Shown piece by piece: positions 1 to 32,919 of a stretch of 32,919 nucleotides of DNA (positions within the stretch are counted from its first letter, which is position 1; the number at the start of each line of letters is the position of its first letter). The position numbers and the translations under genes are program-made. The DNA is taken from the IMG/VR virus record IMGVR_UViG_2690316321_000007. The stretch is one strand, 5' to 3'. The notes below the pieces were generated by a model. That model was given only the letters and a program-made list of their open reading frames with translations. It did no database searches and was not told the origin of the DNA. Source of the stretch: a virus (lineage: Duplodnaviria > Heunggongvirae > Uroviricota > Caudoviricetes).

Positions 1-1362
1 ATGTTTAAACCGGAACTCCTTTCCCCGGCGGGAACGCTGAAAAATATGCGTTACGCTTTCGCTTATGGCGCAGATGCTGTTTATGCGGGCCAGCCGCGTT
101 ACTCCCTGCGTGTGCGCAACAACGAATTCAACCACGAAAATCTTCAGCTCGGCATCAATGAAGCCCACGCGCTGGGGAAAAAGTTTTATGTCGTGGTCAA
201 CATTGCACCGCACAACGCCAAGCTGAAAACCTTTATCCGTGACCTGAAACCGGTGGTGGAAATGGGGCCGGATGCGCTGATTATGTCCGATCCAGGGCTG
301 ATTATGCTGGTGCGTGAACACTTCCCGGAAATGCCAATCCACCTCTCGGTACAGGCTAACGCCGTAAACTGGGCGACGGTGAAATTCTGGCAGCAAATGG
401 GTCTGACCCGCGTGATCCTCTCTCGCGAACTGTCACTGGAAGAGATTGAAGAGATCCGCAATCAGGTGCCGGATATGGAGATCGAAATCTTCGTTCACGG
501 CGCGCTGTGCATGGCCTACTCCGGTCGCTGCCTGCTCTCTGGCTATATCAACAAGCGCGACCCGAACCAGGGCACCTGCACCAACGCCTGCCGCTGGGAG
601 TACAACGTCCAGGAAGGGAAAGAAGATGACGTCGGCAACATCGTACACAAGTACGAGCCGATTCCGGTGCAAAATGTTGAGCCGACGCTGGGTATCGGCG
701 CGCCAACCGACAAAGTGTTTATGATCGAAGAAGCCCAGCGTCCGGGCGAATATATGACCGCGTTTGAAGATGAGCACGGCACTTACATCATGAACTCAAA
801 AGATCTGCGCGCCATCGCCCATGTTGAACGCCTGACCAAAATGGGCGTGCATTCGCTGAAAATCGAAGGCCGTACCAAATCTTTCTACTATTGCGCACGC
901 ACCGCGCAGGTTTACCGTAAAGCTATCGATGACGCCGCTGCGGGCAAACCGTTCGATACCAGCCTGCTGGAAACTCTGGAAGGTCTGGCGCATCGTGGCT
1001 ATACCGAAGGTTTCCTGCGTCGTCATACCCACGACGATTATCAGAACTACGAATACGGTTATTCGGTTTCTGACCGTCAGCAGTTTGTTGGTGAGTTTAC
1101 CGGTGAGCGCAAGGGGGAGCTCGCGGCGGTAGCGGTGAAAAATAAATTCTCCGTTGGCGACAGCCTTGAGCTGATGACGCCGCAAGGCAACATTAACTTT
1201 ACCCTTGAGCATATGGAAAACGCCAAAGGTGAAGCTATGCCGGTCGCACCAGGCGATGGTTATACTGTGTGGCTCCCGGTGCCGCAGGATCTTGAGCTAA
1301 ATTACGCGCTGCTGATGCGTAATTTCTCCGGGGAAACCACGCGTAACCCCCACGGTAAGTGA
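1..1362 (+). CDS. yegQ: U32-family peptidase-like protein YegQ; host gene left of the prophage
   Basis: 453-aa ORF starting at window base 1; sequence and length recognised as E. coli YegQ from memory; lies directly upstream of cyaR as in E. coli. Confidence 0.85.
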   Translation: MFKPELLSPAGTLKNMRYAFAYGADAVYAGQPRYSLRVRNNEFNHENLQLGINEAHALGKKFYVVVNIAPHNAKLKTFIRDLKPVVEMGPDALIMSDPGLIMLVREHFPEMPIHLSVQANAVNWATVKFWQQMGLTRVILSRELSLEEIEEIRNQVPDMEIEIFVHGALCMAYSGRCLLSGYINKRDPNQGTCTNACRWEYNVQEGKEDDVGNIVHKYEPIPVQNVEPTLGIGAPTDKVFMIEEAQRPGEYMTAFEDEHGTYIMNSKDLRAIAHVERLTKMGVHSLKIEGRTKSFYYCARTAQVYRKAIDDAAAGKPFDTSLLETLEGLAHRGYTEGFLRRHTHDDYQNYEYGYSVSDRQQFVGEFTGERKGELAAVAVKNKFSVGDSLELMTPQGNINFTLEHMENAKGEAMPVAPGDGYTVWLPVPQDLELNYALLMRNFSGETTRNPHGK

Positions 1363-1395
1363 TTAATTTCGATTATTTTTCCCGGATGGAAAATT

Positions 1396-1417
1396 CTTAG
1401 AAACCGATCACATACAG
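1396..1417 (+). promoter_or_regulatory. Candidate CRP site and promoter of cyaR (one good TCACA half-site, weaker partner; possible -10 TATCAT at 1434..1439)
   Basis: TCTTA-N6-GATCACA pattern centred about 41 bp upstream of the proposed cyaR 5' end; CyaR is known to be CRP-dependent. Assigned by eye only. Confidence 0.4.
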
Positions 1418-1446
1418 CTGCATTTATTAAGGTTATCATCCGTTTC

Positions 1447-1533
1447 GCTGAAAAACATAACCCATAAAATGCTAGCTGTACCAGGAACCACCTCCTTAGC
1501 CTGTGTAATCTCCCTTACACGGGCTTATTTTTT
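1447..1533 (+). ncRNA. cyaR: CyaR (RyeE) Hfq-dependent small RNA; its 3' terminator overlaps the prophage att core
   Basis: 87-nt stretch GCTGAAAAACATAACCC...CACCTCCTTAGCCTGTGTAATCTCCCTTACACGGGCTTATTTTTT matches the CyaR sequence as I recall it, including the anti-SD-like CCTCCTTA seed and a terminal hairpin plus T-run. Confidence 0.8.
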
Positions 1534-1534
1534 A
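1507..1534. repeat. att core, left copy (28-bp perfect direct repeat)
   Basis: AATCTCCCTTACACGGGCTTATTTTTTA is identical at 1507..1534 and 32247..32274; its reverse complement contains the 27-bp P2 att core AAAAAATAAGCCCGTGTAAGGGAGATT as I recall it. Confidence 0.85.
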
Positions 1535-1595
1535 CGTACAACAAATTGAAATAAAAGGATTTATTTCTGGTCACGTCCACACATTGACCACATCG

Positions 1596-1628
1596 ACAAA
1601 AAAGCCCCTCGACTGAGGGGCTATTTTT
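1596..1628. terminator. Bidirectional Rho-independent terminator downstream of ogr
   Basis: GC stem GCCCCTC / GAGGGGC with 4-nt loop, flanked by an A8 run on the left and a T5 run on the right. Confidence 0.65.
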
Positions 1629-1632
1629 GTGA

Positions 1633-1851
1633 TCACATCCACATAATTTGCTGTCCTGACGGCAACGGGTGCGGTCTTACGGCGTGGACTTCTCCCGGCT
1701 TCACGATGTATCGCTGCACCGACTCATAAGTGATGAACGTGGCGCTGCAATTCACGTTCTGGCACTGGTGATAACGCTCTTTTGTCGTGTCAGTGATATA
1801 GCGACTTGTACGCGCATGTGCGGCATGCTGGCATAAAGGACAATGAAACAT
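1633..1851 (-). CDS. ogr: Ogr, zinc-finger activator of late transcription (72 aa)
   Basis: Translation MFHCPLCQHAAHARTSRYITDTTKERYHQCQNVNCSATF... matches P2 Ogr; the six-frame ORF was trimmed to the conserved ATG at 1851. Confidence 0.9.
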   Translation of the reverse strand: MFHCPLCQHAAHARTSRYITDTTKERYHQCQNVNCSATFITYESVQRYIVKPGEVHAVRPHPLPSGQQIMWM

Positions 1852-1932
1852 CGCGAGCACCTCTTCCGGTTTTGTTGATGGTGCCATTTTAGTTAATTTA
1901 TCCTTATAAAACAAACAGATAAATAAAACACA

Positions 1933-3096
1933 TCACTCATCATCTTCGGTTTCGTACTCCACATCAGAAAGCCTGACCTCAAGCTCCAAGGACGTCGTGA
2001 AGCCGCTATTATTCAGAAAATGTGTCACCTTAGTGATTGTCCAGTCCTGCTCGTCTATGACGCGCTTAAAGCCTGACACTTTGACCGGCGTTTCCGTGTA
2101 AATATCTGCCCGACCAGTAGCCAGACTGATGGAGAACTCCGCTACACCCCGTTGCAGTTTATCCCACTTCGCCTGAGCGGCGCGCATGGCCTGTGCTTTC
2201 GTGGCATATACCGTGGTCAGTGCAAAAACGTTGTCAGCCTCACCGGCCATGTATTCACCTTCGCGCGCTTCCGGTACTTTTGGCGCTTTCTTCTGCGTGA
2301 CTGGTTTCGCTTTCGGGTGCTCCAGTGCGCGCAGGTGTTTCTCTTTCTTTTTGCGTTTCAGTTTGACCTTCTGCTTTTGCGGCTTCGGGTCTTTGGTGTG
2401 TAACCACTTTGCCGTTACGCCTGTGTAGGCTCCGCGGTCAGCAATCGCAAAATGATGACGGTCGCCGTCGCTGCGGGTGATGGTAATCTGCGGGATTTTT
2501 TTACCGCTGGCCGTCACCCCCTGCCCCGCTTTGAGAAACAGCAGTTTTCCCATTTTTACCGACACCTCACCGCCGTTGCGTTCTGCAAGACGGGTCAGGA
2601 ATTTCGCATCAGACTCCTGCGACTGGTCGATGTGCGGGATTTTAATTCCGGCCAGTGACGGCGCGACACTGGCTTCCAGCCTGTTACGGGAGGCTATCGC
2701 TTCAACAATCGCACCGAGCGTGGTGTCATGCCAGGAGCCTTCCCGGCGGGAATTGAGCGTCCCGCGAAAATCTGCACTCCGGGCGCGGATGGTGACCACA
2801 TCCGGTGCGCCCCGGTGTTCAACCTCATCAACGGTAAATTTCCCTTTGCATACCAGGGCAAAACCTTTCCAGCCGATATACACCGTCAGGACAGCGCCAC
2901 GAACCGGCAACCCGACCTGCCCGTCGGCATCGTTCAGTTCAATATCAAGCTGGTCAGCCTCAAAGCCCCGGTTATCCGTCAGGGTCATGCTCATCAGACG
3001 GTCGCTGATATTGCCGGTAATATCCCTGCTGTCGAGCATCAGCATGTAATCCGGCGTCAGCGTACTGCCTGCATCAAATGTCAGCGCATCCAGCAT
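1933..3096 (-). CDS. D: Tail protein D (387 aa)
   Basis: Length equals P2 gpD as recalled; position between ogr and U. Confidence 0.85.
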   Translation of the reverse strand: MLDALTFDAGSTLTPDYMLMLDSRDITGNISDRLMSMTLTDNRGFEADQLDIELNDADGQVGLPVRGAVLTVYIGWKGFALVCKGKFTVDEVEHRGAPDVVTIRARSADFRGTLNSRREGSWHDTTLGAIVEAIASRNRLEASVAPSLAGIKIPHIDQSQESDAKFLTRLAERNGGEVSVKMGKLLFLKAGQGVTASGKKIPQITITRSDGDRHHFAIADRGAYTGVTAKWLHTKDPKPQKQKVKLKRKKKEKHLRALEHPKAKPVTQKKAPKVPEAREGEYMAGEADNVFALTTVYATKAQAMRAAQAKWDKLQRGVAEFSISLATGRADIYTETPVKVSGFKRVIDEQDWTITKVTHFLNNSGFTTSLELEVRLSDVEYETEDDE

Positions 3097-6457: not shown

Positions 6458-6513
6458 GGTTTTCTCACTTCTGAATCGGGGTTAACCGGTCAGCCAGGCT
6501 GACCGGATGAAAA

Positions 6514-7032
6514 TCACAGGCCGATATTGCGGCGGTGTTGCTCCAGCCGGTCGACGCCGTTCACCTTCTCAATCATGTTGATGGTGTCGATTTCGACCAG
6601 TTCCTTACCGTCCATCGTCAGCCGGAAATAGGTGCAGACCACAGAGATTTTCGACTCGGTATCTTCTCCCTGTTTCCCCTCGCCGGTGTCGATTTCTTTC
6701 TGACGTCCACGCATGATCACTTCGACGGCCACCGTTTCGCCGGTATCGTCGCGCTGGTAAGAGCCTGCAAAACGAATCGGTACGGCATCCACACCGGTTG
6801 CGGCGTAAAGCTCCCAGATAACCGAATCCGGGAAGCCACCGAGCGACCACTCCATTGACAGCGCATCGTCATCAAGGCCGAGGTCTACCGGTGCGCTGCC
6901 GTTCATCCCCGCACCGCGATAGTTTTCGAGCTTACGGGTCAGTTTTGGTAGCGTGACGGACTTCGCGACGCCCTGATAGCTGTAGCCGTTCAGAAAGACG
7001 TTCATTAACTTGAGTTTGCGCGGCATTGCCAT
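6514..7032 (-). CDS. FII: Tail tube protein FII (172 aa)
   Basis: Length and position match P2 gpFII. Confidence 0.85.
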   Translation of the reverse strand: MAMPRKLKLMNVFLNGYSYQGVAKSVTLPKLTRKLENYRGAGMNGSAPVDLGLDDDALSMEWSLGGFPDSVIWELYAATGVDAVPIRFAGSYQRDDTGETVAVEVIMRGRQKEIDTGEGKQGEDTESKISVVCTYFRLTMDGKELVEIDTINMIEKVNGVDRLEQHRRNIGL

Positions 7033-7044
7033 CGGTCAGGCTCC

Positions 7045-8235
7045 TTAATTGCTGTTAACCGAGGTGACCAGATTTGCCAGGTATTTATCGGTAATACGCT
7101 GGCGCAGGGTCAGGTTTTCAAGAGGAGGCACCGGTGTATAGTCGTAGTCGATATACAGTTTTCCGGCCTTGAGGGTTTCCGCATCGTTGGATTCTTCGCT
7201 GAACCAGCAGGTCGCATCCACGATATAGCCGTTTGTTTTCAGCTCACGGAATTTGGCATTGATGCCGTCAACGATGTCGCGAATCAGCGTTGCGGTGATG
7301 GGCTTGTCCACCGCCCACATGTGCGCCTCAGCCATCGTGTCGGCCAGCACCTGCGCGGTGCGGGTGTAGTTTTCAAAGAGGAACAGCGGGTCATCAGAGC
7401 AGGTACGGTTACCCCAGAATCGGAAACCGTCGCGGCGAATCAGCGTTGTGACGCCTGACTCGTTAAGCAGGTCAGCATCGGTGCCGGACTCCTGCAAATC
7501 CCAGAATACAGATGTGCTGATGCCGGTAACACCGTTTACCCCAACGTTGGACAGCGTTTTATGCCAGCCCTGCTCCTGGTCGATTTTAGCGCGCAGACCC
7601 AGCGCACGGGCGGTGGCATACGCGGTGGCGGTGGTGCTGCTGACCGTATCCCATGCGAGGAAATCCGGCCAGATGACCATCAGCTCACGCTGGCTGAAAT
7701 TCTGGCGGTAGGCTTTCACCTCGGAAATGGTTTTACAGCCCCATGCGCTGATATACCCGAAAGCGCGCAGCTTCTGACATACTGATGCCAGTGCAACCGC
7801 CACCTCTTTGGTGTCCAGTCCCGGCACGCCGAGAATACGCGGTTTAACACCGGTAACAGACTCCGCCGCCAGCAGGGCTTTCAGTCCGGTGTACTGACCG
7901 TTTTCGTCGGTGGTGCCAATGATATTGGAAACGGTCTGCGCGAGTTTCGTTTCCTCGTCGTCGCCGGTGCCGTCTTCCACGCGCACAACAACGGTGACCG
8001 GTTTTGACTGGTCAGCGATGGCCTGCAGCGACGCCGCCAGCGTGCCTTTTTTACCGGCCTTTGCAATTGCGCTCTGCACATTGGTAATCAGCACCGGTTT
8101 ATTGAGGGGGAAGGTTTCCGCATCCGCATCGCTGGCCATGCAGACCATGCCAACAATGGCGGTGGATACGGTGGAAATGACGCGGGTGCCGTCGTTAATC
8201 TCCAGCACCTGCACGCCGTGATGATAGTCACTCAT
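7045..8235 (-). CDS. FI: Contractile tail sheath protein FI (396 aa)
   Basis: Length and position match P2 gpFI; SD GGAG upstream of the ATG. Confidence 0.9.
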   Translation of the reverse strand: MSDYHHGVQVLEINDGTRVISTVSTAIVGMVCMASDADAETFPLNKPVLITNVQSAIAKAGKKGTLAASLQAIADQSKPVTVVVRVEDGTGDDEETKLAQTVSNIIGTTDENGQYTGLKALLAAESVTGVKPRILGVPGLDTKEVAVALASVCQKLRAFGYISAWGCKTISEVKAYRQNFSQRELMVIWPDFLAWDTVSSTTATAYATARALGLRAKIDQEQGWHKTLSNVGVNGVTGISTSVFWDLQESGTDADLLNESGVTTLIRRDGFRFWGNRTCSDDPLFLFENYTRTAQVLADTMAEAHMWAVDKPITATLIRDIVDGINAKFRELKTNGYIVDATCWFSEESNDAETLKAGKLYIDYDYTPVPPLENLTLRQRITDKYLANLVTSVNSN

Positions 8236-8326
8236 CCGTTTAACTCCGTGGTTAATGGGTGCAACTATTTTCTGTTGGGCAGTGCATGAGACGCTATTTG
8301 ACCTGGCTGGTCAGTGGATGAAACAA

Positions 8327-8357
8327 CAGATAAAGAAAATGCGGGCAATTCGCCCGC
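8327..8357 (-). terminator. Terminator-like hairpin upstream of FI (GCGGGC-aattc-GCCCGC, U-rich on minus strand)
   Basis: 6-bp GC stem followed on the minus strand by ATTTTCTTTA; lies between the cargo genes and the FI late promoter region. Confidence 0.45.
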
Positions 8358-8645
8358 CTGTCCTGATTTGTACACACTCATTTTCCGACTGACAATTTAC
8401 ATAGCCCAAAATCTATCAAATCTGACAGTCTGCTTTGAGTGAGAAGCGGAAGTTCAATGTGATAAAGCTCAGGAACATTGTCGTTGATGATGATAAAGAG
8501 GATCAGACTAACTAGCACTTCTCATCACGTTGATAAGGCATAGAAATCACAAACACTATTGTGAATATCGTTTTACTATAGTAAATTCAAGTAAGTTCTT
8601 TTCGTTCGTTATTACACAAAATAAAGTTCACTCTAAGGTTGAAAA

Positions 8646-9089
8646 ATGTTAGATATCAGAATGTCACGACCATCTGAAGCAGATGAGATCATACAAATCT
8701 GGAAGAGTTCAGTCGATGCTACCCACGACTTTCTTACAGGTCATGACCGACAAGAAATCGAAAAAGAAGTTGTCGGCTTTTTCTCAGAAACTCCTGTATG
8801 GGTTGCAACAAATCAGGATGACCAACCGCTAGGATTTATGTTTTTGCATGAGGGCCATCTGGAGGCACTTTTTGTAGCAGGCTCTGCTCGCGGACTTGGC
8901 GTCGGAAAACGTTTGATCTCTCATGCACTGGCGCTGCATCCAGAGCTAAGCGTTGATGTAAATGAACAAAACCAGCAGGCTGTAGGGTTTTATCAGCATA
9001 TGGGTTTTCAGGTATTAGGGCGTTCCGATCTGGATAATCAGGGAAGGCCATACCCCTTGTTGCATCTGAGAATGGCCAATAACATGTAA
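8646..9089 (+). CDS. GNAT-family N-acetyltransferase, YjaB-like (147 aa); accessory cargo
   Basis: Motifs IWKSSVDATHDFL, LGFMFL, VGKRLISHAL and NEQNQQAVGFYQHMGF resemble E. coli YjaB from memory; AT-rich upstream region; lies in the G-FI junction. Confidence 0.75.
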   Translation: MLDIRMSRPSEADEIIQIWKSSVDATHDFLTGHDRQEIEKEVVGFFSETPVWVATNQDDQPLGFMFLHEGHLEALFVAGSARGLGVGKRLISHALALHPELSVDVNEQNQQAVGFYQHMGFQVLGRSDLDNQGRPYPLLHLRMANNM

Positions 9090-9109
9090 CCAATGTGGCA
9101 GAGAAGATA

Positions 9110-9694
9110 TCATTGATTTTTTTGGCTAAAAGCCACGATGTAAGAACAGCTCTGCTCACTATCTGGATTGCTCATTTGGTACTCGCTTGCAAAGGTAAGG
9201 GCAAGACAGTCACCGGCACGTAAATGATGGGTCTGATTTTTGACTCGAAAATCAAGGCTACCACTCATCACCCAAAGCGTTTGCCCGGAAAGATGCTCAT
9301 TTGCGGAGGCGGGTATCGTCAGCTCACCCATTGCAGGAATTTCAACTTTGATCAGTTCCGGGCATGCCCCCGCAGGAGACAAAGACCAACGGGTGATGCC
9401 TGATTGCTCATCCGTCCAGTGCTGTTGCTGATGAGCAAAACGAACCAGGGAATTCTGATGTTGCTCAAGCTCTGCAAAGAGTTTAGATAGCGTTACATTC
9501 ATGGCGTTGGCCAGGCGGCTAAGGATAGTTGCACTAGGGCTGGAGATGCCTCGTTCAATCTTACTAATCATGGCCTGACTGACGCCCGATCGTTGAGCAA
9601 GCTCAGTTACAGTCAAATTGCGAGCCTTCCTGTGTTTAAGCAATAAACGTGCAATATCGCTATCTACTATCTGATTTTTAGATTTTTTATCCAT
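9110..9694 (-). CDS. XRE-family HTH transcriptional regulator with C-terminal cupin domain (194 aa); accessory cargo
   Basis: N-terminal LTVTELAQRSGVSQAMISKIERG helix-turn-helix; C-terminal half has cupin-like character. The 305-aa six-frame ORF was trimmed to the ATG at 9694 because the extension overlaps G and lacks a ribosome-binding site. Confidence 0.7.
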   Translation of the reverse strand: MDKKSKNQIVDSDIARLLLKHRKARNLTVTELAQRSGVSQAMISKIERGISSPSATILSRLANAMNVTLSKLFAELEQHQNSLVRFAHQQQHWTDEQSGITRWSLSPAGACPELIKVEIPAMGELTIPASANEHLSGQTLWVMSGSLDFRVKNQTHHLRAGDCLALTFASEYQMSNPDSEQSCSYIVAFSQKNQ

Positions 9695-9929
9695 TTCCGC
9701 CCTCTCTTTCACCAACCTGATTATGCCATTACATAAATTGGCCTGAAATAAATGATTTTGTAAGTCTGTAAATTCACTACTCCTAAGCGTGGTACTTCGT
9801 TTATACGCACCTATGACCTTAAAATATGAGTTGGTAAGCTTAACGTCCGCTTTTGGCACAGAGCGGACTGTCAGATTAGGCTTTACTCTGTGCCATAGAT
9901 ATGTAAGCTCACACCAGAGCTCATACAAC

Positions 9930-10457
9930 TTATTGCGGCATTTCCGGCCATTCAGGATTTGCAGGATCCACACGACTGACCAGAACGCTGTAACGCTCCC
10001 ATGCATCCAGTCGGCTACGCTCCTCATCTGTTGCCATATTCAGTCTGACCGCGCGCTCCAGCGGCAAAATCACGGATTCAGCATCTGCTAGAAGTCTGGC
10101 TTTCCGATTTTCTGCCTGCTGCTGCAATTCCTCCGCCGTATAAATTCGTTTAATCACTGTGCCGTCCTTAAACATCCAGTTCCCTGAAATGTCCGCCCGT
10201 CGGTTAGCAGTAATATCTGGCACTTCAACAACACTTAATCCATCTGGTCTGATAGCTGTCACATCCTTTTCCACATAGCGGATAATATTATCTTTGTCGT
10301 ACGCTATTTTTATCGTGTCATCAGCAAAATACTTTTGTTCTTCGTACCAGTTCTTACCATCTTCTGAAAAAAACCAGACAACATCAAAACCCTTTGTCAA
10401 TTGATATTGTTCAACCGTTTTTGGATTACCCGCTGTTATATTTATCAAATGCTGCAT
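9930..10457 (-). CDS. G: Tail fibre assembly chaperone G (175 aa)
   Basis: Length and position match P2 gpG. Confidence 0.85.
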
Positions 10458-10460
10458 AAA

Positions 10461-12590
10461 TTATACCTGTGCCACGTTATACCATGTCCCGTTAATGTAT
10501 TTCTGCACCGGTCTGTAATATATGCCACCAATGTTATCGGCAGAGTTTGAGCCGGTATCCTGAACAATAATGCCAGAATATACACACCCGGACGGTGCCT
10601 GATGTGTCCATGTCATGCCATTGTTCGCTGGTTTGTATGTGGCAGCACCACCAAGCCGGATATCCCGGACATAGCGGGAATCAAAGTTACCGTAATCCGA
10701 GGGATTAACACGCCCCGTAATATTTATGGTTTTATTACTTTGAATGCTACCGGAGACAAAGCGCATAACATGGACGTTATTAGCATAAACATCCAGATTA
10801 CCGTCGCCATTTTGTTTAAAGCCCGTGTCATTATCACCCAAAACAATCGAGTTACCGCCAAGATCACTGGATGTTCCGATGCCCAGTGCACCATTCAATT
10901 GACCTCCAGATAATGACAACGCCCCAACATCAGCAGCAGTCGGTTTAATGTGCGAACTGTAAATTACATATACAGTTCCATCTGTCAGGCCTGTTGGTTT
11001 ATTCGCTGTATAAGTTGGTGATGTATGAATCGTTACGCTGGCGTTACTGGTATAATCCCACTGAATATTAACACCTGTGGCGTAATTACCTATTTCAACA
11101 TAAACATCATAGGTATCACCGGATGTATTCACCCATGCAAAATTAGTAAATCCAACCGATGTCCGTCGCCATAACGCACCAGTAAGACCTTTTGGATTTC
11201 CATTTCCCGCACGAAGAACAAGTTCAGATATACCAGCCTGCATAGGGGAGTTAACATTATATCCAGCACCACCAATCAGGCTTATGTAAACCACGGAACT
11301 TGCCTGGGGCATGGTTACAGTTGCCAGCCTGAACCATCCTGTACCACCACTAAAAGACATGGTTGTTGAATTTGTTGCTCCAATATTGCGCAGGAATAAT
11401 CTTTTATCAGGAATATCCGCACCGTTCTGATCTTTCTGAAGACGTTTTTCAGCATTGTCATAGGCAGACTTCACCGCTTTTGGTGTTGCGGCCAGCGTTT
11501 CAGAATCACTGTTGGTGGCGCTACTGAGCTGAACAAGCCCTTTTCGCGCTGTGGTGGCATCCTGTGCAGTGTATTTCCCGTTAGCAAGGTCATACGCGAC
11601 CTTTACCGCCTTTGGCGTTGCCGCAAGCGTTTCAGAATCGCTGTTTGTGGCGCTACTGAGCTGGACAAGACCTTTTCGCGCCGTGGTGGCATCCTGTGCG
11701 GTATATTTCCCGTTAGCGAGGTCATATGCTGTCTTAACCGCCTTTGGCGTTGCGGCCAGCGTTTCAGAATCGCTGTTGGTGGCGCTACTTAGCTGGACAA
11801 GACCTTTTCGCGCGGTGGTGGCATCCTGTGCGGTATATTTCCCGTTAGCGAGGTCATATGCTGCCTTTACCGCCTTTGGCGTTGCCGCAAGCGTTTCAGA
11901 ATCGCTGTTGGTGGCGCTACTGAGCTGAACAAGGCCTTTTCGCGCTGTGGTGGCATCCTGCGCGGTATATTTCCCGTTAGCAAGATCATAAGCGGCCTTT
12001 ACCGCTTTCGGCGTTGCGGCCAGTGTTTCAGACGTGCTGTTGGTCGCACTGCTTAACTGAGTAAAACCTTTTGCGGTCAGCGAGGCGTCCGGGTGACGTC
12101 GTGACTGTTCGTGCTCTGCAATTTTGTCATCAACGTAATCCTGCGTCGCCATCACCGTTGTGGTGTCAATGGTCAGCGCCACTGAGGCCACACTGCTGAC
12201 GATGATGACCATGCGGCAGGTCTGCGAACGCCCTGAGCCTTCGGCAAGAGCTGGCTTATAACTTTCGGCCATGTTCGCCACGGCAATTAACGTTCCAGCA
12301 TCATCGTACAGGCCAAGCTCACGCATCCAGAAACCGCCCACCTCCGGCGGAATAACCAGCTCTGCGATAATATAATTACTGTTTCGTTTGTCCTGGCTGA
12401 TTTTGTTCAGCGCATGTCGCCAGACTTCATGGATAAGCCCGGTCTGTCCGGCATCCGGGACAGGCAATTTACCACCGCCATCCCCGACGGCCATCGTGGT
12501 AATGTTGACCTTCCGCCCTCCCGGTGCGGTTGCCGCTGCCAGCTTTGCTGCACCGGCAGTGGTGATAACGGTTTTGAATTTTGTGCTCAT
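10461..12590 (-). CDS. H: Tail fibre protein H (709 aa) with expanded internal repeat and divergent C-terminal region
   Basis: Conserved N-terminus and the C-terminal IVLGDNDTGFKQNGDG...QKYINGTWYNVAQV block; five copies of a 44-aa repeat in the middle. Confidence 0.85.
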   Translation of the reverse strand: MSTKFKTVITTAGAAKLAAATAPGGRKVNITTMAVGDGGGKLPVPDAGQTGLIHEVWRHALNKISQDKRNSNYIIAELVIPPEVGGFWMRELGLYDDAGTLIAVANMAESYKPALAEGSGRSQTCRMVIIVSSVASVALTIDTTTVMATQDYVDDKIAEHEQSRRHPDASLTAKGFTQLSSATNSTSETLAATPKAVKAAYDLANGKYTAQDATTARKGLVQLSSATNSDSETLAATPKAVKAAYDLANGKYTAQDATTARKGLVQLSSATNSDSETLAATPKAVKTAYDLANGKYTAQDATTARKGLVQLSSATNSDSETLAATPKAVKVAYDLANGKYTAQDATTARKGLVQLSSATNSDSETLAATPKAVKSAYDNAEKRLQKDQNGADIPDKRLFLRNIGATNSTTMSFSGGTGWFRLATVTMPQASSVVYISLIGGAGYNVNSPMQAGISELVLRAGNGNPKGLTGALWRRTSVGFTNFAWVNTSGDTYDVYVEIGNYATGVNIQWDYTSNASVTIHTSPTYTANKPTGLTDGTVYVIYSSHIKPTAADVGALSLSGGQLNGALGIGTSSDLGGNSIVLGDNDTGFKQNGDGNLDVYANNVHVMRFVSGSIQSNKTINITGRVNPSDYGNFDSRYVRDIRLGGAATYKPANNGMTWTHQAPSGCVYSGIIVQDTGSNSADNIGGIYYRPVQKYINGTWYNVAQV
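11459..12059. repeat. Tandem 132-bp (44-codon) repeat, about 4.5 copies, inside tail fibre gene H
   Basis: Unit encodes QLSSATNS(D/T)SETLAATPKAVKxAYDLANGKYTAQDATTARKGLV; the nucleotide period of 132 is visible directly in the sequence. Confidence 0.85.
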
Positions 12591-15099: not shown

Positions 15100-15885
15100 A
15101 TGGTCAGCTATAATGTGACTAATGTGTGGGGGCTAATCGTTTTTTTCCTTTGTAGCTTTGCAGTATTAGCATTTTTTAGCTTTGGTAAAAGTAACCTTAT
15201 GAGGCTTATTGCACATTATTTCAATTTTGGATATTCAGACAAAAAATTAAAAAGACTTGACCGCGAGTGGCGCGACATTCAACTATTTAAAATAATTAAC
15301 GGAATCAATGTATCAGGCATTGAAAATGTGAGAATGATACAGCAGGGACTGATTGATGGAAAACTAAAAACATCGTATTTTTTCCTTACTCGCATCTGGG
15401 GTGACATAACAAAACCACCACACATAATTAAAACAATAATTGTAATTCTGGCCAGTATTTTTTACATTCTCCTCGCATGTTACATACACAACGAACAATC
15501 CGTTATAGTAAGGGATGCCATAGGCATACCATATAAAAACATGATGTACTATGTTTATAGTGACAAAGTTCTTTTATCCTTCAAAAATAAAGCAGTTGAA
15601 TTTAATAAAACTTATAGCCTTGCCGATTGCAAGAGACTGCAAAACGTATTTATAAAAGACACACTTCCTGAGATCGCCTGCAATAAGCTCTTACAGCTAA
15701 ACGAGGAGGACTCCGAATGGTTAAGCCAGGAGATTAAAGATAATAACAGTCACAAAAAAGCATTGTTAATACTATCCCTCGTCTATTTCACTTCAGGTCT
15801 GGTTATATTCCTGTCATATACAAAATTCTTTTACGCCAATAAGAAGGTTTTAGAATACAAAGCATCAAATAAAAATCACTCATAA
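15100..15885 (+). CDS. Hypothetical membrane protein (261 aa, three predicted TM helices); AT-rich moron between V and S
   Basis: Strong SD AAGGAG 8 nt upstream; opposite strand to the flanking late genes; markedly AT-rich; hydrophobic segments near residues 9-28, 110-130 and 222-242; no domain I recognise. Same position as P2 orf30. Confidence 0.7.
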   Translation: MVSYNVTNVWGLIVFFLCSFAVLAFFSFGKSNLMRLIAHYFNFGYSDKKLKRLDREWRDIQLFKIINGINVSGIENVRMIQQGLIDGKLKTSYFFLTRIWGDITKPPHIIKTIIVILASIFYILLACYIHNEQSVIVRDAIGIPYKNMMYYVYSDKVLLSFKNKAVEFNKTYSLADCKRLQNVFIKDTLPEIACNKLLQLNEEDSEWLSQEIKDNNSHKKALLILSLVYFTSGLVIFLSYTKFFYANKKVLEYKASNKNHS

Positions 15886-24102: not shown

Positions 24103-25136
24103 TGAGCAAGAAAAAAGGGAAAACACCGCAACCTGCGGCAAAAAAAATGACCGCCAGCGCCCCGAAAATGGAGGCATTCACCTTTGGTGAGCCGGTGCCG
24201 GTACTCGACCGCCGTGACATTCTGGATTACGTCGAGTGCATCAGTAACGGCAGATGGTATGAGCCGCCGGTCAGCTTTACCGGTCTGGCGAAAAGCCTGC
24301 GTGCTGCCGTGCATCACAGCTCGCCGATTTACGTCAAACGCAATATTCTGGCCTCGACATTTATCCCGCATCCGTGGCTTTCCCAGCAGGATTTCAGCCG
24401 CTTTGTGCTGGATTTTCTGGTGTTCGGTAATGCGTTTCTGGAAAAGCGTTACAGCACCACCGGTAAGGTCATCAGACTGGAAACCTCACCGGCAAAATAT
24501 ACCCGCCGTGGCGTGGAGGAGGATGTTTACTGGTGGGTGCCGTCCTTCAACGAGCCGACAGCCTTCACGCCCGGCTCCGTGTTTCACCTGCTGGAGCCGG
24601 ATATTAATCAGGAGCTGTACGGCCTGCCGGAATATCTCAGCGCCCTTAACTCTGCCTGGCTGAATGAGTCGGCCACGCTGTTCCGCCGCAAGTATTACGA
24701 AAATGGCACACATGCCGGATACATCATGTACGTCACCGATGCCGTGCAGGATCGCAACGATATCGAAATGCTTCGCGAAAACATGGTCAAGTCGAAAGGC
24801 CGCAACAACTTTAAAAACCTGTTTCTCTATGCCCCGCAGGGGAAAGCTGACGGCATTAAAATTATCCCGCTCAGTGAAGTGGCAACGAAGGACGATTTTT
24901 TTAATATCAAAAAAGCCAGCGCCGCTGACCTGCTGGACGCACACCGCATCCCCTTTCAGTTGATGGGCGGCAAGCCGGAGAACGTCGGGTCACTGGGAGA
25001 TATTGAGAAAGTGGCAAAGGTCTTTGTCCGCAATGAGCTTATCCCGTTACAGGACAGGATCCGCGAGATAAACGGCTGGCTCGGTCAGGAGGTCATCCGC
25101 TTTAAAAACTACTCACTGGACACTGACAACGACTGA
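24102..25136 (+). CDS. Q: Portal protein Q (344 aa)
   Basis: Length and position match P2 gpQ; start overlaps the P stop. Confidence 0.85.
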   Translation: MSKKKGKTPQPAAKKMTASAPKMEAFTFGEPVPVLDRRDILDYVECISNGRWYEPPVSFTGLAKSLRAAVHHSSPIYVKRNILASTFIPHPWLSQQDFSRFVLDFLVFGNAFLEKRYSTTGKVIRLETSPAKYTRRGVEEDVYWWVPSFNEPTAFTPGSVFHLLEPDINQELYGLPEYLSALNSAWLNESATLFRRKYYENGTHAGYIMYVTDAVQDRNDIEMLRENMVKSKGRNNFKNLFLYAPQGKADGIKIIPLSEVATKDDFFNIKKASAADLLDAHRIPFQLMGGKPENVGSLGDIEKVAKVFVRNELIPLQDRIREINGWLGQEVIRFKNYSLDTDND

Positions 25137-31153: not shown

Positions 31154-32167
31154 ATGGCAATCAAAAAACTCGATGATGGTCGATATGAAGTGGACATCCG
31201 CCCTACTGGACGTAACGGAAAACGCATCCGTAGGAAGTTTGATAAGAAAAGCGAAGCTGTCGCTTTCGAAAAATACACGTTGTACAACCACCACAATAAA
31301 GAATGGCTATCAAAACCAACAGACAAACGACGTCTGTCGGAACTGACACAGATCTGGTGGGATTTAAAGGGTAAACACGAAGAGCATGGGAAATCTAATC
31401 TTGGAAAAATTGAAATCTTCACAAAAATAACGAATGACCCATGCGCATTTCAAATCACGAAATCCCTTATCAGCCAGTACTGCGCCACCCGAAGAAGTCA
31501 GGGTATTAAACCTTCGAGTATCAATCGTGATTTAACATGTATTAGCGGCATGTTTACAGCCCTGATTGAAGCGGAGTTATTCTTTGGTGAGCACCCTATC
31601 AGAGGGACAAAGAGGCTTAAGGAGGAAAAACCAGAAACAGGCTATCTCACACAGGAAGAAATTGCCTTACTGCTTGCAGCACTTGACGGCGACAACAAAA
31701 AGATTGCGATTCTTTGCCTGAGTACAGGAGCACGTTGGGGAGAAGCAGCTCGTTTGAAAGCAGAAAATATCATCCATAACCGCGTCACGTTTGTTAAAAC
31801 GAAAACAAACAAACCACGCACCGTCCCGATCTCAGAGGCTGTTGCCAAAATGATCGCGGATAACAAACGAGGTTTTTTATTCCCTGATGCTGATTACCCT
31901 CGCTTCAGACGAACAATGAAAGCAATAAAACCGGATTTGCCAACGGGGCAAGCCACACATGCACTAAGGCACAGCTTTGCCACTCATTTCATGATTAATG
32001 GAGGAAGTATTATCACGCTACAACGGATACTAGGTCACACGCGGATTGAGCAAACTATGGTTTACGCTCATTTTGCGCCAGAGTACCTTCAGGACGCCAT
32101 TTCTCTTAATCCGCTAAGAGGTGGTACTGAAGCCGAGAGTGTCCACACAGTGTCCACAGTAGAGTAA
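31154..32167 (+). CDS. int: Tyrosine integrase (337 aa)
   Basis: C-terminal catalytic signature (...HALRHSFATH...LGHTRIEQTMVYAHF) typical of tyrosine recombinases; adjacent to the att core. Confidence 0.9.
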   Translation: MAIKKLDDGRYEVDIRPTGRNGKRIRRKFDKKSEAVAFEKYTLYNHHNKEWLSKPTDKRRLSELTQIWWDLKGKHEEHGKSNLGKIEIFTKITNDPCAFQITKSLISQYCATRRSQGIKPSSINRDLTCISGMFTALIEAELFFGEHPIRGTKRLKEEKPETGYLTQEEIALLLAALDGDNKKIAILCLSTGARWGEAARLKAENIIHNRVTFVKTKTNKPRTVPISEAVAKMIADNKRGFLFPDADYPRFRRTMKAIKPDLPTGQATHALRHSFATHFMINGGSIITLQRILGHTRIEQTMVYAHFAPEYLQDAISLNPLRGGTEAESVHTVSTVE

Positions 32168-32246
32168 CGTTTAAGGGCTTTCAGTGGTAATTTATGCCGC
32201 TCAAACCCGCATTGTACCGTTGAAAGCCCCTACTGGTGACACCCTA

Positions 32247-32274
32247 AATCTCCCTTACACGGGCTTATTTTTTA
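32247..32274. repeat. att core, right copy (28-bp perfect direct repeat)
   Basis: Identical to 1507..1534. Confidence 0.85.
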
Positions 32275-32601
32275 TGCATAAGCCCTATCCCTGGTCACCG
32301 TCTTCCATTGACCACATCGATAGAATCCTCCTTCATAGCACGATGCTTTTCACTTATCGACATCGTGCTCGCACAGGTTCCGGTTACGCACAGCCAGAAC
32401 GCGCATGTTTGACGCTTACCAAAAAATGAACCTAAAGCATTGGAACATTTTTGACATCATTTTCTGATGGCTGCATAAAATAAAAATTCTGCTTTAGTTT
32501 CATCTATCTGTTTGTCATTATTACTCACATTCAATAATGGTGTTGAAGAATATCCCATCACAGATAAAATAAATATGTGCATGGTAGTCTTGAATCTATT
32601 C
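32275..32601. other. Degenerate remnant resembling ogr-proximal phage DNA (possible relic of an older P2-like insertion)
   Basis: 32283..32320 (CTGGTCACCGTCTTCCATTGACCACATCGAT) resembles 1561..1596 (CTGGTCACGTCCACACATTGACCACATCGAC) immediately right of the left att copy; no intact ORF. Confidence 0.4.
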
Positions 32602-32919
32602 TCACTCTCCACATTTGAATGTCAGACGAGCGACGCCATGTAATCCTGCACCTTCTGTCTTCAGGTCAACTATCTGCATTTTTTTGCCCTGAGTAACACA
32701 GAAATGAGTTGCATCATTTTTTACTATATTTTCTGCACCAGATATTCTACCCCTGGCTAAAGAAGCTTCGGCTTCGGTGTAGTATTGGTTATCGAGTTTA
32801 CGCTGAATATTACTTTTATATGCAAGGCCAAATTTACCGATACTTGTCTCATCATTATGCACAGCACAACCAGACATAAGAAAAACACTAATTAATGATA
32901 TAGCAGCTATCTTTTTCAC
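32602..32919 (-). CDS. yegR: Small lipoprotein (105 aa, signal peptide with LMSGC lipobox); probably host yegR
   Basis: GTG start exactly at the window edge; MKKIAAISLISVFLMSGC signal/lipobox; size and position after the yegQ-cyaR locus fit E. coli yegR from memory. Confidence 0.55.
   Translation of the reverse strand: MKKIAAISLISVFLMSGCAVHNDETSIGKFGLAYKSNIQRKLDNQYYTEAEASLARGRISGAENIVKNDATHFCVTQGKKMQIVDLKTEGAGLHGVARLTFKCGE

Follow-up and report, generated by a model that had tools for sequence, protein, structure and literature searches.

The DNA immediately right of attR in the window (the whole stretch of DNA that was analyzed, 32,919 nt) most likely forms the left end of a P2-type relic, old and presumably inert, that lies at the 3′ end of the small RNA gene cyaR and predates the diversification of E. 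coli. A sequence-only reading of this DNA had proposed that the intact prophage in the window sits beside the decayed relic of an older one; outgroup genomes and a second junction support that proposal, but the relic is not the remnant known from K-12. It is also larger than had been proposed, as it includes yegR and extends ~0.6 kb past the window end. Because no phage gene survives in the relic, we file it as a P2-type att element and not as a proven P2 phage or Peduovirus; the label of P2-like phage would rest on ~50 + 70 nt of arm/core similarity.

Layout of the window

The features of the host locus and the intact prophage used as reference points are as follows.

1–1362: yegQ/trhP, the first gene of the window
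1445–1530, plus strand: cyaR sRNA gene (Rfam RF00112, 100.7 bits, E 3e-19)
1507–1533: attL core of the intact P2-like prophage, 27 nt, corresponding to the attP feature of P2 (AF063097)
1534–1597: ogr-side phage arm, the reference for the relic comparison (homology to P2 AF063097 protein_bind features)
1633–1851, minus strand: ogr of the intact prophage (Pfam Ogr_Delta, 1.1e-21; same sequence as P2 Ogr)
31154–32167, plus strand: integrase gene (int) of the intact prophage (Pfam Int_N and Phage_integrase)
32133–32246: int-side phage arm, the reference for the right junction of the relic (homology to P2 AF063097 Int "P' arm" and Cox features)
32247–32273: attR core of the intact P2-like prophage, 27 nt
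32602–32919, minus strand: yegR (RefSeq annotation of matching genomes; PF27694), with its start codon at the window end

The intact P2-like prophage occupies 30.7 kb between the two cores, which are identical over 27 nt (28 if the next A is counted); the att core makes up the 3′ half of the cyaR terminator. At its left end the prophage carries ogr and then D, and at its right end int. Reading away from attL, the ogr-side arm consists of an IHF site followed by two integrase arm-type repeats (GTCCACA / GACCACA), and it matches the IHF (24324–24357) and Int "P arm" (24293–24320) features of P2 record AF063097. The int-side arm contains two GTGTCCACA repeats at 32139–32158 and a Cox-site region.

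Within the prophage, cargo at 8646–10027 lies between the tail sheath and tail fibre assembly genes; it comprises genes for a GNAT acetyltransferase (8646–9089, plus strand) and an HTH_3 and cupin protein (9110–10027, minus strand), which may be a toxin/regulator pair. The tail fibre gene (10461–12590, minus strand) contains ~5 tandem 132-nt repeats at 11457–12116 that are 75–91% identical and correspond to five Phage_fiber_2 repeats. A 261-aa ORF at 15100–15885, on the opposite strand among baseplate and tail genes, occupies the position of the P2 orf30 slot; it had no Pfam match.

A decayed ogr-side arm beside attR

Local alignment paired 32291–32320 with 1567–1596, and 27 of the 31 aligned columns are identical. 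Its score of 38 is far above that of shuffled sequences (19.0 ± 2.5, maximum 29; blastn E 2.5e-4), and a repeat search of the window recovered the pairing as an ungapped match of 32286–32325 to 1562–1601 at 75% identity. An alignment forced to begin where the core stops, so that the core itself did not count, scored 19 versus 3.3 ± 1.7, and 0 of 2000 shuffles reached that score. The earlier observation that the DNA just right of attR resembles the phage DNA right of attL is thereby borne out.

The matching phage stretch (1567–1596) is the annotated integrase binding site of the ogr-side arm in P2 (AF063097), where an IHF site precedes it and the ogr terminator follows it. The arm match is offset from the core by 17 nt in the relic versus 33 nt in the phage, a difference of 16 nt; alignment of the relic arm with its counterparts in P2-like prophages of six other species places a 16-nt gap at the position of the IHF site. 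Mutation has turned the first Int repeat of the relic arm from GTCCACA into CGTCTTC; the second, together with its flank, is preserved (CATTGACCACATCGATA). Beside the left core, then, lies an ogr-side arm that has kept one repeat intact and has lost both the IHF stretch and the other repeat.

The interval originally put forward as the relic, 32275–32601, is not one unit, since 32274–32429 is near-universal in E. coli and 32430–32597 is a 168-bp indel. We divide it as follows.

32274–32325: putative decayed ogr-side arm of the older element (anchored alignment and alignment with the arms of P2-like prophages)
32326–32456: remaining relic DNA, ~130 nt at ~49% GC, with no match found and not detectably ogr
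32430–32597: 168-bp segment, carried by 948 of 5426 E. coli genomes but lacking in K-12 and O157
32457–32597, minus strand: putative N-terminal remnant of a second lipoprotein gene (tblastn versus the 110-aa ORF of locus L092, 15/37 identical, E 1e-6)

Weaker similarities to the 3′ region of ogr had also been described further into the segment, and these proved insignificant at both the DNA and protein levels. The best colinear element shared by the segment and the ogr region is a 10-nt exact word (blastn E 1.6), and the local score of 11 for 32326–32460 against the terminator and ogr was equaled by 337 of 1000 shuffles. An ogr pseudogene at 32300–32460 was considered on the basis of a tempting CxxC-x18-CxxxxC pattern and rejected. 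The minus-strand peptide of the segment had no match to Pfam Ogr_Delta (the true Ogr scores 1e-21) or to a PHROG Ogr family, tblastn of this ogr-like peptide against prophage loci found no match, and the Ogr HMM with all filters off gave ~0 bits in six frames.

Distribution of the segment in E. coli

The segment and yegR were matched in 5418 of 5426 complete E. coli genomes, with or without a prophage at the site. In strain N12, which has no prophage, the stretch from cyaR through the core and segment to yegR is 99.9% identical to the window; O157 and K-12 lack 32430–32597. This 168-bp piece is single-copy, and its carriers include the type strain ATCC 11775, S88, NRG 857C, and ST95 strains. 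The junction of int end, attR, and segment seen in the window occurs in 812 of the 5426 genomes.

This conservation bears on a rival explanation, namely that the segment is ordinary host intergenic DNA and that the arm match arose by chance or by the phage copying its arm from the host locus. The sequence-only reading had itself taken conservation in strains that lack any P2 remnant as evidence of host DNA, and by that criterion the relic idea would fail, because nearly every E. coli conserves the segment, the prophage-free strain N12 and O157 among them. Nevertheless, we regard a host origin as highly improbable. The P2-like arms of six other species conserve not only the motif shared with the segment but also the IHF site and both repeats, which have been lost in E. 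coli, and the relic reading is rescued by the outgroups and the far junction of the insert, as described below.

The empty site in outgroups

Loci around yegQ were taken from 80 species of Enterobacteriaceae, with two non-coli Escherichia genomes as the close outgroups. cyaR and its core were detected in 79 of the 80 species at 85–100% identity, whereas DNA and protein searches of the 80 loci found neither the segment nor yegR, which counts against a host origin. We also looked for more divergent copies of the island by way of YegR homologues 76–88% identical; those at the yegQ–yegS locus were in assemblies with fragmented genes, probably sequencing errors, and were left out, and the others lie at unrelated loci.

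Both the core and yegS could be placed in 47 of the 80 loci, and in 34 of these 47, yegS follows 73–115 nt after the core. The loci with this short cyaR–yegS spacing include those of Escherichia sp. E1V33, Klebsiella, Citrobacter, Kosakonia, and Trabulsiella; an empty site is thus found in related genomes. By comparison with the short spacer in outgroups, the ~1 kb that E. coli carries from the core to just before yegS is an insertion exactly at the P2 att site. It had been suggested that the older relic left a reusable core behind, and this does not hold: the core is the cyaR terminator (RF00112), which is conserved across the surveyed species.

The far junction of the relic

The right junction lies ~0.6 kb past the window end, and we read it in N12, K-12, and O157. 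In all three, homology to the outgroup spacer resumes at CGACTTTCATCC (longer: CGACTTTCATCCTGTTCTGAC). The 27-mer that ends 6 nt before the spacer resumes is identical to the att core at 16–18 of 27 positions (binomial P ~3e-5 for 18/27), and the 18/27 copy ranks third in the whole K-12 locus, behind the copies with 27/27 and 22/27. The insert is therefore bounded by a direct repeat of the core, with 27/27 positions at the left end, in cyaR, and 16–18/27 at the right end, outside the window.

The 70 nt ending at this 27-mer aligned to the int-side arm plus core (window 32204–32273) with an anchored score of 17–18, compared with 3.4 ± 1.8 for shuffles (0/2000), and by this alignment an int-side arm lies beside the right core. 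We also considered the right junction as a duplication of cyaR. The same 70 nt scored 11–12 against the cyaR 3′ end, below the score for arm plus core, and the phage int-side arm upstream of the core has no resemblance to cyaR; therefore, the junction is phage-like, and a duplication of cyaR was rejected. The right-arm similarity fades past ~70–95 nt and the Int repeats are not recognizable; its extension toward the repeats and the int 3′ end is insignificant past ~95 nt. The right-junction similarity is significant only when anchored by position (in an unanchored stringent search, 71 of 500 shuffles were as good), so its weight comes from its exact position. The int-side arm and decayed core at the far end of the insert are a further argument against the segment being host DNA.

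Comparison with the K-12 ogrK/D' remnant

In 1992, Barreiro and Haggård-Ljungquist reportedly described a P2 remnant, ogrK and yegZ (D'), at locI, the attachment site that P2 prefers in E. coli K-12. The segment might be a shorter, further-decayed allele of that remnant, as the sequence-only reading had supposed in calling it a much-shortened counterpart; both lie between cyaR and yegR, and the arm-like motif is real. We aligned the yegQ–cyaR–ogrK–D'–yegR region of K-12 to the window. The K-12 remnant matches window 1246–2147 at 96% identity and thus represents the left end of a prophage like the present one; ogrK/D' itself corresponds to window 1534–2147. A deletion has fused the remnant to the attR core at 32256, with the junction in TACAC microhomology. 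The deletion of ~30 kb runs from TACAC in D (window 2143–2147) to TACAC in the attR core (32255–32259). Downstream of the remnant, K-12 has the same right-hand segment (32256–32427) at 95% identity. Because the remnant aligns to 1246–2147 and the segment follows it, remnant and segment are not a longer and a shorter allele of one another; the two stand side by side in K-12, and the segment shows neither an ogr signal nor the homology to ogr and the D 3′ end found in ogrK/yegZ. The shorter-allele explanation is refuted by this alignment. The alignments proposed with it give a divided result, in that 32275–32601 matches the ogr-side arm but not, to any significant degree, ogr itself, and the K-12 remnant aligns to the prophage left end instead.

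The K-12 locus (L002) contains three successive core copies, at 2363, 2992, and 3787, that match the core at 27/27, 22/27, and 18/27 positions, respectively, and represent two generations of relic. The structure of the GenBank record "phage TP" is the same as that of the K-12 region. The K-12 remnant and the older relic share the att site in the cyaR 3′ end, and the K-12 remnant is likewise a P2-type prophage shrunk by deletion with the cyaR-side core intact; however, it is a separate, younger event that retains ogr and 213 nt of D and lies left of the older relic, in which no phage gene remains and both arms are decayed. Moreover, the K-12-type D'/core junction occurs in 359 of 5426 genomes, whereas the older relic is nearly fixed in the species.

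Other insertions at the cyaR site

E. albertii NBRC 107761 carries a comparable island at the same cyaR–yegS site (locus L008, 5534–8903), with the toxin genes cdtA, cdtB, and cdtC at 6509–8651 (Pfam). On its left side is an ogr-side arm of P2 type that includes the first repeat and an IHF-like stretch; on its right side are an int-side arm, a second core that is nearly intact, and then the same host spacer. A run of 39 nt (L008 8828–8866) is identical to window 32199–32237 in the int-side arm. A P2-like origin of cdt loci is known, and the E. albertii island is a younger cargo-only relic. It resembles the E. coli relic in its site, in the ogr-side arm after cyaR, in the int-side arm and second core before the spacer, and in that cargo genes alone remain; it differs in being younger, with arms and second core nearly intact, and in having a toxin operon of known function as cargo. 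Other species have relics of 1.7–2.7 kb, or full prophages, at the cyaR site. Together with the E. albertii island, these show that P2-type elements at the cyaR site have repeatedly decayed to islands that hold cargo alone.

The 3′ end of cyaR is also a recurrent insertion hotspot. Inserts between cyaR and yegS measure 633 nt in Enterobacter loci L006, L066, L071, L074, and L081, 625 nt in L079, and 746–831 nt in Kluyvera loci L030, L036, and L050; no arm motifs were found in these Enterobacter and Kluyvera inserts. Those of L067 and L077 have a P2-type arm and a 201-aa membrane ORF common to both. In locus L006 (4001–6852; labeled Enterobacter hormaechei B17-3), the YegQ protein and cyaR DNA are 100% identical to the window, and after the 633-nt insert, yegS is of Enterobacter type (71–75%); this is either a recombinant locus or a labeling problem.

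The interior of the relic

In N12, the GC content is 49% in 32274–32429, 30% in the 168-bp piece, 39% in yegR, and 30% upstream of yegR, compared with 54% in yegQ and 49% in yegS. The relic interior, at 30–39% GC versus 49–54% in yegS and yegQ, is compositionally foreign.

YegR is a 105-aa predicted lipoprotein (PF27694) with a lipoprotein-type signal peptide ending in LMSGC, and it is nearly restricted to E. coli and Shigella. Distant homologues of yegR occur at unrelated loci, in an IS-rich region of an Enterobacter and between glsA and a nitroreductase gene. At the latter locus, a gene for a 108–110-aa lipoprotein follows 3 nt after yegR (L092 5001–5654; L094 169–816). The remnant at 32457–32597 corresponds to the N-terminal 37 residues of this second lipoprotein, with the lipobox Cys changed to Tyr and a stop at 32457. 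The 168-bp piece is thus a pseudogene stub. Most simply, the long form is ancestral and the K-12/O157 form arose by a later deletion; in E. coli, the second gene of the two-gene lipoprotein cassette is present as a 5′ stub or is wholly deleted.

In the remaining ~130 nt, tests for RNA structure in 32326–32429 were insignificant on both strands (z −1.45 and −0.8). An inverted repeat at 32337–32367 (GCACGATG...CATCGTGC), of 8 bp in the window and 10 bp in K-12 and O157, was considered as a terminator and rejected, as it has no T-run and no significant fold.

DNA and protein searches against ogr, the rest of the prophage, and phage records identified no remnants of P2 genes (ogr, D, int, or structural genes) in the insert. 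A phage database search with 32240–32610 returned only core matches and host flanks inside phage records, and no YegR homologue was found inside sequenced phage genomes. YegR as a known phage protein was also rejected: host flank carried along in phage or prophage records best accounts for its full-length match to phrog_21109, and the only two phage-database records that match YegR both also contain the host segment.

No phage gene remnant is detectable inside the insert, and the arms show the attP type alone. A small non-phage element, such as a satellite or integrative island with a P2-type integrase and attP, could have carried yegR instead of a full P2-like prophage, and yegR homologues do also occur in IS-rich and unrelated contexts. 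Full P2-like prophages, however, do decay to islands at the cyaR site, as in K-12 ogrK/D' and E. albertii cdt, and the 130 nt at ~49% GC differ from the AT-rich cassette; we judge a small element to be quite unlikely.

It is also conceivable, though rather unlikely in our assessment, that the relic consists of the two arm fragments alone and that the yegR cassette was inserted later, into or beside it. The cassette is far more AT-rich than the flanking arm fragments, and the same gene pair is found at another chromosomal locus in other Enterobacteriaceae. On the other hand, no target duplication or IS end is present at the cassette borders, and the E. albertii island shows cargo retained between arms. 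Phage cargo genes are, in addition, typically AT-rich. We favor yegR and its partner gene as cargo of the older element; because YegR is without a homologue in sequenced phage genomes, their status as cargo is stated as a presumption. The older element may have been a complete P2-like phage.

Proposed history and significance

Our preferred reading is that of an old P2-type relic. An element with P2-type arms entered the cyaR terminator in a forebear of E. coli and then decayed to ~1 kb, with both arms and the distal core degenerating and the proximal core staying intact. The surviving order is the degraded ogr-side arm, ~130 nt, the AT-rich two-gene cassette, the degraded int-side arm, the degenerate second core, and the cyaR–yegS spacer. 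The left core stayed perfect as the cyaR terminator, presumably kept by selection on cyaR, and the site remained a working attB. Each integration may restore the proximal core from attP, which would keep the site usable. Later P2-like phages, namely the present 30.7-kb prophage and the ancestor of K-12 ogrK/D', entered between cyaR and the old relic.

The relic is probably inert now, with no role in recombination. It is very unlikely, judging from sequence, that P2 recombination is influenced by the retained arm-type repeat (GACCACAT), or that yegR came from a phage and was domesticated for a role in the host. If the former were true, the retained repeat, 33 nt from the core, would make the E. 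coli attB (attR after integration) a partial mimic of attP with arm-type sites on both sides, and this mimicry could shape the strong preference of P2 for the cyaR site or bias excision. If the latter were true, yegR would encode a phage-derived lipoprotein kept species-wide for host benefit, for example in surface or exclusion functions.

Remnants of prophages are already known, as are att sites in RNA genes that are occupied in tandem and the P2 remnant that K-12 carries at the cyaR site, and the relic reveals no new mechanism. As in grounded or domesticated prophage remnants and in the tandem re-use of attB sites in RNA genes, the phage replaces the 3′ end of an RNA gene, the core is kept by selection on that gene, the site can be re-used, and remnants pile up distally. 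There is no difference in principle; here, a named, species-wide "core" gene, yegR, sits within the relic. In the literature, of which our coverage was incomplete, we found no account of the yegR island as an older relic.

The conservation of the segment in prophage-free strains is a caution in its own right, as such conservation is no proof of host origin. If our reading is correct, the site that P2 prefers in E. coli is no pristine attB; it would adjoin a relic that an earlier P2-type insertion left throughout the species. Within that relic would sit yegR, which is generally taken for an ordinary chromosomal gene whose function is unknown. The locus would then illustrate layered re-use of one RNA-gene att site, first by the element that left the old relic and then by the one that left the K-12 remnant or by the intact prophage.
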